Part shown: positions 8,254 through 10,400 of the stretch, piece by piece
Layout: each line of letters begins with the position of its first letter
Numbering within the stretch: position 1 is the first letter of the stretch
DNA from: Promethearchaeati archaeon
GTDB taxonomy: Archaea > Asgardarchaeota > Heimdallarchaeia > JABLTI01
Assembly: GCA_013166835.1 (NCBI GenBank)
Contig: JABLTI010000081.1
Span: forward strand, 1-12,022
Length of the DNA stretch: 12,022 nt
Direction of reading: 5' to 3'
Notes under the pieces: generated by a model
What the model saw: only the letters and a program-made list of their open reading frames with translations
What the model was told of the DNA's origin: nothing
Databases searched by the model: none
Program-made: the position numbers and the translations under genes

Positions 8254-8991
8254 TTGGAAAATCTATACATGATTGAAATGTTGGTCTTTAAAGAAGCAAT
8301 TGAAAAACTGTTAGCTCAAGAAAAAATTGGTAGATGTGACTTTCATACTCATTCATTCTTATCTGATGGAGTTCTTCTGCCTATTGAGCAATTACGAAGA
8401 GCATTTGTTCATGGGCATGCAGGTTATGGCATTACTGATCACGTTAGCTTGTCAACTCTTGATATTATTCCAAAATTAATAGCGGATTGTAAACTAGCAA
8501 CAAAACATTGGGGAATCCTCGCTCTTCCAGGTATTGAAGTAACTCATGTGCCTGTAAATGCAATTGAAGAAGTCATAGAGAAATCAATAGAAAAAGGAGC
8601 ATTAATAATTGTAATTCACGGGGAAACCATAGCTGAACCCGTGGAACCAGGTACAAATCTGAAAGCAGCGGAAAGTAAAAATGTGGATATTTTAGCTCAT
8701 CCAGGTTTACTAACTAAGGATGTTGCTAATCAGTGTAAGAAAAACAATGTGTTCGTAGAGATAACATCCAACAGAACGCATTCAATTACAAATGGTCATA
8801 TAGCTAAAATTGGAAAAGAATCCCAGGTGAAATTCATCCAAAATACTGACACTCATAGTCCAAGAGATATGAAAAATTATGAAGAAGGAGAACGAATACT
8901 TCTTGCGTCAGGATTTACAAAGAAAGAAACCGAAACAATACTACAAGATAATATTCGAGAATTTCTTACAAGAATATATGAACGGTTATAA
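8254..8991 (+). CDS. PHP-domain metal-dependent phosphoesterase (histidinol-phosphatase-like, archaeal type)
   Basis: PHP motifs DFHTHSFLSDG, ITDH, PGIEVTH, IHGET, ILAHPG and NTDTH. Start is uncertain; ATGs at 8269 and 8278 are alternatives to the TTG at 8254. Confidence 0.88.
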   Translation: MENLYMIEMLVFKEAIEKLLAQEKIGRCDFHTHSFLSDGVLLPIEQLRRAFVHGHAGYGITDHVSLSTLDIIPKLIADCKLATKHWGILALPGIEVTHVPVNAIEEVIEKSIEKGALIIVIHGETIAEPVEPGTNLKAAESKNVDILAHPGLLTKDVANQCKKNNVFVEITSNRTHSITNGHIAKIGKESQVKFIQNTDTHSPRDMKNYEEGERILLASGFTKKETETILQDNIREFLTRIYERL

Positions 8992-9034
8992 AGAAAAATA
9001 ATGGAAAAACTAATTCTCAAAATTATTAATTAGA

Positions 9035-9268
9035 AGTGGAACAAGACAGGGAGAAAGTCCCTGTCCGTTTAACGAGTGGGTGCCTTATAAAATAAGTTTC
9101 ACAAGGAGGATGATTGTGGTTTTCAGGCAATCACTCAAGATGTTATTGGGGGAGGTTTTATATGAGATTTGGACTTAATACTGGAGGAATGTGGAAGGAT
9201 TTTAAATGACATTCCTTTTGGAATGCCACTGCAGATTTAAAGTCACCTTATTTCTAGGGGAAATTTAC
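9035..9268 (-). ncRNA. Putative structured small RNA with multiple CCUCC motifs (family not recognised)
   Basis: No long ORF. Helices at 9205-9230, 9074-9085/9125-9136 and 9040-9069; three CCUCC motifs on the minus strand; BRE/TATA-like element at 9289-9303. Boundaries and strand are inferred. Confidence 0.5.
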
Positions 9269-9288
9269 AATATTACTTCTGTTTCCAA

Positions 9289-9303
9289 TATTAAAAGGCG
9301 TTC
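9289..9303 (-). promoter_or_regulatory. Putative BRE+TATA promoter pointing into the ORF-free gap
   Basis: Minus strand GAACG-CC-TTTTAA-TA aligns with the Nudix promoter GAAAG-AT-TTTTAA-AA. ATTGTA follows, with its G (9268) 23 nt past TTTTAA. Confidence 0.45.
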
Positions 9304-9418
9304 TGGAAAATTTCTTCAATTCTTCTAGTAAAATTACTCGTATAAAATCTGAAAGAAATATGGAAAATTATAAAAAATTAAGAAAAAAATAGAATTTCCA
9401 AAGAAAAGGAGAATCCTA

Positions 9419-10285
9419 TTATTGTTCATATATTTCTTGTGATTCAGTTTCTGAGGTTTTCATAGTTGCTGCCTTCGTTCCAACTAGAGTTAAGTTCCAA
9501 ATTAGTATTAGTACTATCGTGAGTAAAAATAATCCGGAAAATATTAGTGCGAACATAAACTGATTACCCGTTTTTTCAAGCAAATCCTGTGCTCTCGTCT
9601 GCCGCGCCAAAGAATTCCATATGATTGGATAATACAGTGCTGGCATCAATAATGAAACTCCACTACAAGTTAAACTTAATTTTTGTATAAATTTGAATGC
9701 TGCGAAGTGTGTTCCTAAGATAATTATTGCTGCAGCAATGAATATTAGAATAGTTACAGCTGGTGAAAAGAAGGTATCTTGTTCACCATAAAGCGGTTTC
9801 AATTCAGATGGTGTTATTGAGGTATCATTGTATGTATGCCCAGCATGAATGGGCCAATCATGTATAGCTGGCCATATCAAGAAGTAATGATTTAAGGAAT
9901 TAACAACAGTTAATGCTGAAGCGGAACCTAAAAGGATTAACAATCGCAAAAAGTTCATTTTCTTACGATCAGATTTGACTATTGAACTAAACACCATTTC
10001 AGCGAAGAATACTATCGCTAGTTCTATCGGGAAATTAAATACCATCATTGTAAAAACAGTATTAAATTTTGGAAGACTTGTTTGATTACCTAGTGGAGGA
10101 TCAATTTCTTGGTTCAGAATTGGAGTGATCTCAGTTTCACCAGGTTGAGCTTCATTGTACATTGGTGTTAGAATATCAACACCTTGTTCAGCTATTAAAT
10201 TGTAGGTTCCGATATTGTAAAGCAAAATTGCTGCTGAAACGATTAGAATAAATGCGGTTTTTTTCATTCCCTGCATACGCATCAT
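9419..10285 (-). CDS. Hypothetical multi-pass membrane protein
   Basis: N-terminal signal/TM segment (MKKTAFILIVSAAILLY) followed by about five more hydrophobic segments. Start moved from the TTG at 10309 to the ATG at 10285 because GGAAGG lies just upstream. No family recognised. Confidence 0.7.
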   Translation of the reverse strand: MMRMQGMKKTAFILIVSAAILLYNIGTYNLIAEQGVDILTPMYNEAQPGETEITPILNQEIDPPLGNQTSLPKFNTVFTMMVFNFPIELAIVFFAEMVFSSIVKSDRKKMNFLRLLILLGSASALTVVNSLNHYFLIWPAIHDWPIHAGHTYNDTSITPSELKPLYGEQDTFFSPAVTILIFIAAAIIILGTHFAAFKFIQKLSLTCSGVSLLMPALYYPIIWNSLARQTRAQDLLEKTGNQFMFALIFSGLFLLTIVLILIWNLTLVGTKAATMKTSETESQEIYEQ

Positions 10286-10400
10286 TTTGTTCCTTCCTTT
10301 ATTATTCAAAAGATTACTATTTCATTATTATATAGAGTTTACGATTACAATGTTCTTTTTAACAATTTCTAAAATTCAAGTAATTTTAACAGTTTTCTAA

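Follow-up and report, generated by a model that had tools for sequence, protein, structure and literature searches.

A probable non-coding RNA gene confined to one family of Asgard archaea, with a conserved promoter module and a candidate winged-helix regulator

Alphaproteobacterial "cuckoo" small RNAs (sRNAs) carry CCUCC motifs. To our knowledge almost nothing is known about the regulatory RNAs of Asgard archaea, and literature searches brought up no described sRNA of Heimdall-type archaea, which is not proof that there are none. Staphylococcal RsaE is a C-rich sRNA with a UCCC motif, according to the sections of PMC9266662 concerned with it. Methanosarcina mazei sRNA41 and loop 2 of sRNA154 are examples of intergenic trans-acting sRNAs in which anti-ribosome-binding-site (anti-RBS) loops mask ribosome-binding sites, as set out in the relevant sections of PMC5867862. 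The locus analysed here is a 427-nt gap (positions 8992-9418) in a 12,022-nt stretch of DNA (the window), which is the whole contig C218 of the archaeal genome bin G000 (3.56 Mb, 85% complete). The gap lies between two convergent genes, a 245-residue open reading frame (ORF), PHP-like, on the plus strand (8254-8991) and, on the minus strand (9419-10309), an ORF of 296 residues for a membrane protein. A preliminary description of this DNA had rightly called it unusually long against the 46-176 nt found elsewhere (46, 130, 133, 176, 91, and 138 nt), and had placed an independent RNA within it. The locus is very probably a real, conserved, family-restricted non-coding RNA (ncRNA) gene on the minus strand.

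Like sRNA41 and sRNA154, as far as those sections portray them, the locus is archaeal and intergenic and has its own promoter, and its RNA is predicted to be structured, with an exposed pyrimidine-rich loop that may act against ribosome-binding sites. By contrast, the host belongs to a different phylum, and the predicted RNA is longer, at ~250 nt, with several C-rich segments, one of them universal, and an invariant 20-nt block. The likeness is one of description. With the cuckoo RNAs and with RsaE, as its source depicts it, the predicted RNA shares several unpaired C-rich motifs that could pair with Shine-Dalgarno (SD) sequences. However, those are bacterial families and the locus RNA has no Rfam match at or below E = 1, which makes it at best their analogue and excludes membership. 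It may work most like sRNA41 and sRNA154, and it also resembles RsaE. Its predicted architecture further recalls that of bacterial Hfq-type sRNAs, with a seed region, an A/U-rich tract by a stem-loop, and a terminal hairpin with U residues. Most archaeal lineages have Sm-like proteins instead of Hfq.

Conservation was assessed in 83 genomes of the class, 12 from one archaeal family and 71 others (G000 is the window's own genome, the other G numbers are genomes of relatives, and L numbers are extracted loci, including the metagenome loci L031, L090, and L127). A DNA search found the gap in 11 of the 12 family genomes, the missing one being 64% complete, and the covariance model R1, which covers the 3' domain, matched the same 11, G000 included. 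Across the other 71 genomes of the class R1 gave no credible match; weak ones in G012 (29.7 bits, at the end of a coding region) and G063 (26 bits) were rejected, since no match to the 5'-domain model R2 lay alongside. A metagenome scan with the 15-mer TAACGAGTGGGTGCC returned at least 120 loci. Among the matches listed, a profile search recognized 3 of 120 as relatives: L127, whose gap is identical to that of G006; L031, which represents a new lineage; and L090, a partial sequence. The remaining 117 are chance matches. The gap is single copy in G000, where a genome search found one other match, 28 nt long and A/T-rich. With one full copy in the genome and one R1 match per genome, it does not behave as a dispersed repeat or miniature inverted-repeat transposable element, a possibility raised by the preliminary description. 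In all 11 genome loci the element comes immediately after the membrane gene and is read in the same direction. The PHP-like gene is missing from the locus in G002 and G011 and the element is still there, which makes it independent of that gene.

The alignment is a mosaic. Nearly invariant are a 45-nt upstream region, an A/T box, the sequence TTGTAAA, the stem of a hairpin named Hb, and the segments CCUUCCAC and AAGGCACCCACUCGUUAAAC; two further hairpins, Ha and P1, are conserved in shape only, and the spacer between the TATA box and the start, the loops, and a middle part of 60-110 nt vary freely. Conservation stretches over ~330 nt, including the asymmetric invariant block. No known RNA accounts for it: Rfam 15 gave no match in the whole window, and on 8950-9450 the best E values were 1.4-9.9, all far below gathering scores. 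Signal recognition particle (SRP) RNA and RNase P RNA are ruled out, their copies in this genome lying at C107:26208-26515 (110.5 bits) and C163:4201-4533 (109.2 bits), and ARAGORN found no tRNA or tmRNA gene in the window. Look-alikes of C/D boxes, K-turns, Sm sites, and RNase P CR-I, noticed by eye only, were dropped because their letters are not conserved among the homologues. The element is a new RNA family, confined to one family of Asgard archaea.

The promoter is precisely conserved. Read along the minus strand, the distal half of an upstream module (9324-9340) consists of CGAG at 9340-9337 (GCGG in relatives) and the repeat TTTTACTAGA at 9333-9324, and is found in register and gap-free in 12 of 12 homologous loci. 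The proximal repeat ATTTTCCAGAAC (9300-9311) follows 21 bp from the distal one and abuts the promoter core; its ATTTTCCA(G/C)AA is present in all 12 homologues. The core (9287-9299), which resembles a B recognition element (BRE) with a TATA box, is formed by GCC and the box TTTTAATATT. A BRE/TATA-like element had already been noticed here; minus strand 9303-9289 indeed reads GAACGCCTTTTAATA, and the whole A/T box occupies 9296-9287. After 16 variable nt comes an initiator region, TTGTAAA (9264-9270), in which TGTA is invariant in all 12 sequences, so that the layout is GCGG-N5-TTTTACTAGA-N11-ATTTTCCA(G/C)AA-YGCC-TTTTAATATT-N16-TTGTAAA. Ten minus-strand promoters line up gap-free over the whole length between GCGG and TTGTAAA; that of G011 takes one gap. 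The A/T-rich box keeps its place in 10 of 10 aligned promoters with variable letters and is followed by a variable spacer, which is the behavior of a TATA box and initiator. A comparable box, in a like geometry, precedes the 5' end of this genome's SRP RNA gene by ~30 nt. Transcription probably starts at ~9268-9266, and the conserved spacing from TATA box to TTGTAAA is consistent with the earlier prediction of ~9268. Upstream of the module, the 3' untranslated stretch of the membrane gene (9341-9418, minus strand), with long U-tracts, separates that gene from the RNA promoter. At the other end a pyrimidine-rich tail (9005-9044) with U-tracts at 9022-9019 and 9009-9005 likely holds the 3' end. 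A run of at least four U residues occurs 57-90 nt after the start of CCCACUCGU, that is, past P1, in 10 of 11 loci (none in G011). The locus thus presents the intergenic position, the BRE/TATA promoter of its own, and the terminator that go with an archaeal trans-acting sRNA gene. Separately, a 256-nt metatranscriptome contig is identical to window positions 9305-9560; it extends from within the membrane gene across that gene's U-tracts and stops shortly before the TATA box of the RNA gene.

Four lines of evidence favor the minus strand: the promoter, the G-U as against A-C cells in the helices, the U-tracts, and the folding. Fifteen cells, counted stem by stem in each sequence for Hb (11) and P1 (4), pair as G-U on the minus strand only, and none in those helices pairs on the plus strand only. 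The minus strand of 9035-9303 folds with z = -4.30 (0 of 200 shuffles as stable) and the plus strand with z = -2.15; this is the fold of both strands that had been suggested as a check. Across 12 homologues the minus strand has the lower z-score in eight, the two are about equal in three, and the plus strand is lower in one. The plus strand of the window shows no run of at least four U residues downstream and no conserved promoter upstream. Conservation fails for the small plus-strand ORFs behind GGAGG (1-31 residues), whose start codon is gone in G002 and G004 and whose frame is shifted in G003. The reading frame and start are thus not kept among relatives, as they would be in a protein-coding small ORF. 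The few changes that favor plus-strand pairing are read as single-lineage events, with only the outer GAGUG/CACUC of helix P2 taken as real.

From its 5' end the RNA is predicted to begin with hairpin Ha (9244-9260), whose sequence varies and whose stem of 5-7 bp is kept in 11 of 12 homologues (variants CCCUA/UAGGG, ACUCUA/UAGAGU, CCCUU/AAGGG, and UCCCU/AGGGA). Hairpin Hb (9205-9230) has a sequence-invariant stem, GRCAUUCC/GGAAUGUC, and a variable loop of 3-7 nt. The preliminary description had drawn it as an 11-bp hairpin, and 9230-9205 does read AGUGGCAUUCC-AAAA-GGAAUGUCAUU, with 11 pairs including two G-U. On alignment A2 all 127 Hb cells are paired on the minus strand, 13 of them as G-U by the tool's count (11 in per-sequence stems). 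The central A-to-G change in Hb is found in G000, L031, G009, and G011 and not in the closest relatives of G000, and so it arose more than once. Helix P2, formed by 9125-9136 with 9074-9085 on the minus strand, and its enclosed hairpin H3 (9100-9118, loop UCAUCCUCC) appear both in folding and in the alignment; the earlier proposal of 10 Watson-Crick pairs out of 12 around CACAA-UCAUCCUCC-UUGUG holds for this sequence. In 8 of 12 homologues the outer GAGUG/CACUC pairing of P2 recurs at a distance of ~40 nt from the anchor, and G004 has it with a single mismatch; L031 uses another register, and P2 is absent or different in G006 and G011. The U-rich tract ACUUAUUUUAUAAGG (9084-9098) leads into the invariant block AAGGCACCCACUCGUUAAAC (9067-9086). 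Here CCCACUCGU never changes among the 12 homologues, and GGCACCCACUCGUUAAA is shared by 11 of them. The terminal hairpin P1 (9045-9065), which reads GACAGGGA-CUUUC-UCCCUGUC as first described, has a stem of 5-11 bp in all 12 homologues.

Covariation, also proposed at the outset as a check, was analysed as well. The stems of Ha and P1 are kept in shape, and two pairs of P1 are changed on both sides; however, its covariation score was reached by 33 of 500 shuffles, which is weak support, and P2 covariation is not scorable because its 3' strand is invariant. Realignment to the models left the register of Ha, and that of P1 in G008 and G010, unfixed, and stems were therefore counted per sequence by a script that allowed G-U as well as A-C cells. 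Applied to the alignment in full length, RNAalifold brings out part of Ha, Hb, and P1 and nothing else; the variable middle does not align reliably. Overall, sequence comparison leaves the RNA structure supported, although not proven.

The promoter module, two repeats TTTaCTAGA spaced 21 bp apart, is also found before two further loci of the genome. A profile made from the RNA promoters alone has C18:1055-1126 (E 1.6e-4) and C156:13472-13416 (E 0.6) as its next best genome matches. At the first (G000:C18:1062-1340; L165/L166) the module reads GCGGATGTTTTTACTAGA-N12-TTTACTAGAAGTC and is followed by a TATA box, ~200 nt of non-coding sequence with GCAUCCACU twice, an end hairpin with a U7 run, and then a CheY-like response-regulator gene. 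G003 and G007 share this arrangement (81-85% identity), and G006 has part of it (module and CheY-like gene); the locus has no Rfam match. The second match is directly upstream of a gene for a 77-residue winged-helix protein (HTH_24, E 7.5e-9), which was reached independently through G010 with the C18 promoter as query; at this locus (G000:C156:13169-13501; L177) the module is placed ~25 nt further upstream of the TATA box. The protein is 95-100% identical in all 12 family genomes. Searched with a strict pattern, 10 of its 12 loci carry the two-repeat module; a single clear repeat is seen in G011, and G006 gave no clear answer. All 26 module instances from the three kinds of locus align without gaps. 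When they are combined in a profile, those three loci come out on top in the genome (E 2e-6 to 1e-5, a circular result for these three), the next genome matches having E 0.06 or weaker. These sequence comparisons suggest that the repeats are a transcription-factor site, most simply that of the winged-helix protein, which would regulate its own gene, with the RNA gene in the same regulon. Weaker module matches at C152:4542-4507, C118:6802-6836, and C209:8901-8875 (E 0.06-0.26) are possible regulon members; the one on C152 has a TATA-like box and, further downstream, TTGTAAAT.

The C-rich segments lie in the middle of the RNA. The linker at 9137-9204 is indeed nearly free of G, with 2 in 68 nt on the minus strand, and the CCUCC and CCUUCC motifs reported earlier are present as plus-strand GGAGG starting at 9105, 9151, and 9183 and as GGAAGG at 9193-9198. 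CCUUCCAC (9191-9198, minus strand) is the sole pyrimidine motif found in all homologues on alignment A2 (CCCUCCAG in G009), and it could pair with GGAGG through one G-U pair. The remainder of the G-poor linker (9137-9190), with CCUCC at 9183-9187 and CCUCCCCC at 9148-9155, varies between lineages: between Hb and the invariant block G000 has 9 G and 33 C in 112 nt, and G008 has 19 G and 19 C. Of 140,126 strand-specific windows taken from the genome, 0.10% contain three CCUCC copies in 235 nt (the mean count is 0.09; P ~0.001). Across the 12 homologues the counts are 3, 3, 4, 2, 3, 4, 1, 2, 1, 0, 0, and 0, so that seven have at least two copies and two have one, and C[CU]UCC occurs at least once in all 12. 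The genome does use SD sequences: among 2,021 crude start regions, 19% have a 5-mer SD between -20 and -4, vs 2.7% at a control position. As for the 16S rRNA 3' end invoked earlier, the tail GGAUCACCUCCU was confirmed in three relatives of the same genus (their small-subunit rRNA genes score ~1,326-1,399 bits against the archaeal model), whereas neither the window nor its genome contains a 16S gene. The H3 loop AAUCAUCCUCCU differs at one position from the relatives' tail GAUCACCUCCU. Pairing of the invariant block and CCUUCCAC with the relatives' 16S loci was no better than that of shuffled seeds. A separate observation concerns the complete genome G016 of a sister family, where locus L015 (G016:C1) contains a degenerate inverted copy of the last ~50 nt of 16S rRNA; it ends in GGATCACCTCCT and sits on the opposite strand, ~190 nt downstream of the 16S gene.

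The explanation that we put forward is as follows. A stand-alone gene in the gap would give rise to an ncRNA of ~250 nt (about 230-260), transcribed on the minus strand from ~9268 to the U-tract at 9022-9005. A dedicated transcription factor would bind the direct repeats TTTTACTAGA and TTTTCCAGAA, 21 bp apart, which precede the archaeal TATA promoter, and the best candidate would be the nearly invariant 77-residue winged-helix protein, whose own promoter has the same module. The RNA would consist, from 5' to 3', of Ha, Hb, the single-stranded CCUUCCAC, the G-poor linker, and the P2 clamp, which would hold H3 with its loop similar to the 16S tail, followed by the U-rich tract, the invariant 20-nt block, and the terminator-like P1 with its pyrimidine tail. 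Acting in trans, its unpaired C-rich segments would pair with purine-rich, SD-like stretches of mRNAs and lower their translation; to a conserved core of CCUUCCAC and the invariant block, the G000 lineage would have added extra CCUCC copies. Trans-acting anti-RBS pairing is the leading guess for the mechanism, although it is more likely wrong than right, and the whole explanation, independent RNA gene plus anti-RBS mechanism, is put at slightly short of an even chance. A bolder version, in which the RNA mimics the 16S 3' tail through the loop AAUCAUCCUCCU and its CCUCC/CCUUCC motifs, competes for SD sites genome-wide under a winged-helix switch, and forms a translation switch together with the second ncRNA, is unlikely.

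Several observations weigh against parts of this explanation. No transcript of the RNA gene has been seen: the assembled contigs of the sole RNA run, metatranscriptome X1, cover 9305-9560 and stretches of the membrane gene but no position of 9035-9303, which speaks neither for nor against transcription. Ha of G000 is weakened by a minus-strand C-A mismatch (AUUUC/GAAAU could form instead) that corresponds to a G-U pair on the plus strand; one such change is also found in P2 of G004, and in G009 full pairing of the inner P2 would be possible on the plus strand only. Covariation is thin overall, with no compensatory change seen in Hb or P2 either in the alignment or in per-sequence stems and with P1 barely above shuffles; the number of independent lineages, ~7, gives low statistical power. 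The link between the factor and the module is one of co-occurrence only. The mechanism meets the most difficulties. CCUCC is absent from G008, G010, and G011, and the strong excess of C over G in the linker is confined to lineages that bear CCUCC. At the position of H3, G008 has the G-rich loop GCGGGGGGAA and G010 a G-run in the stem. Duplex energies of the C-rich segments with 2,020 putative start regions equal those of shuffled segments (for the H3 loop, a mean of -7.87 vs -7.83), so that the enrichment at target sites for which the preliminary description proposed a test was not found. No extended complement exists in the genome (best E 0.72), the matches inspected lying in coding sequence, nor do the 16S loci of relatives contain a long one. 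Of the independent ~230-nt multi-seed regulator first proposed, the independence is therefore supported, with an own promoter, a single copy, and presence in 11 of 12 family genomes, while the multi-seed anti-SD function does not stand as a conserved core; with CCUCC missing in 3 of 12 homologues, the G-rich loop of G008 and the G-run in the stem of G010, and the null pairing tests, it is a lineage-specific elaboration at best.

The same features can be read as those of an RNA that binds protein, either as part of a ribonucleoprotein (RNP) or as a protein sponge, with the Hb stem, the U-rich tract, and the 20-nt block as recognition sites and the C-rich linker incidental. The Hb stem and the block never vary while loops and flanks do, a pattern that suits sequence-specific recognition better than it does a plain helix or a seed that evolves fast. 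Moreover, no target emerged with marked complementarity, and the tract CUUAUUUU beside a hairpin may resemble the U-rich sites bound by Sm-like proteins. However, a seed with a conserved target would be expected to form just such an invariant block, none of the known RNP RNA families matches, no partner protein is encoded alongside, and the membrane gene next to it diverges quickly (34-87% identity); such a role, the main rival to anti-RBS pairing, appears rather doubtful. That the element immediately follows the membrane gene, in the same orientation, in 11 of 11 loci, and that the contig runs from that gene past the U-tracts to 9305, would also fit a processed 3' extension of the membrane-gene mRNA, a 3'-UTR (untranslated region)-derived RNA whose upstream motifs act on that mRNA or its termination. 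Yet the stop codon and the module are separated by several runs of 6-7 U residues, the contig goes no further than 9305 and does not reach the TATA box, that box and the initiator keep a fixed spacing with a variable spacer between them, and the same module and TATA box precede two unrelated loci, one of them a protein gene. A 3'-UTR origin is thus distinctly unlikely.

A function on the plus strand, either as a structured RNA or leader or as tiny SD-led ORFs for which the GGAGG motifs are real ribosome-binding sites, draws on the ATG or GTG found 0-9 nt after those motifs, on the better plus-strand pairing of the inner P2 (G009) and Ha (G000), and on the z of -2.15. It is nevertheless very unlikely, given that the ORFs are not conserved, that no conserved promoter lies upstream, where the gap before P1 is nearly nil in G005 and G004, that no U-tract lies downstream, and that 15 helix cells would become A-C. 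Finally, the element might act solely as DNA, through operator palindromes, bidirectional terminator hairpins of the convergent genes, or a site resembling a replication origin, with no functional RNA: the Hb stem is a perfect and invariant DNA palindrome, and the upstream repeats are clearly DNA sites. But the length of the Hb loop varies (3-7 nt), the Hb stem has accepted changes after which pairing survives only in RNA and on one strand, the ~330 nt of conservation include the asymmetric invariant block, and no orc1/cdc6 gene is present in the window, all of which render this reading highly improbable.

For the preferred reading, an independent minus-strand RNA gene, the locus offers a delimited RNA gene, a precisely conserved promoter module, and a candidate cognate regulator, and therefore a testable circuit of a transcription factor plus an sRNA in a hard-to-grow lineage. 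If the anti-SD mechanism were true, the RNA would be an archaeal counterpart of the bacterial C-rich sRNAs that had arisen independently. Mimicry of the 16S tail, if real, would give the closest prokaryotic relatives of eukaryotes a small translation switch that is built on RNA and acts globally, under a winged-helix factor whose control extends to its own gene and to a second ncRNA.

The genes on either side of the gap show 34-92% identity among relatives, well short of the winged-helix protein, and the membrane gene diverges fast (34-87%). The 296-residue membrane protein is multi-pass and belongs to no Pfam family, and its Atlas leads are all below threshold. The assignment of the convergent ORF (8254-8991, plus strand) to PHP, made in the preliminary description, has only a weak Pfam match below cut-off behind it (E 0.0017; 19.1 bits against 26.4). 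The same ORF shows an additional faint match to RNase P p30 (E 0.071).

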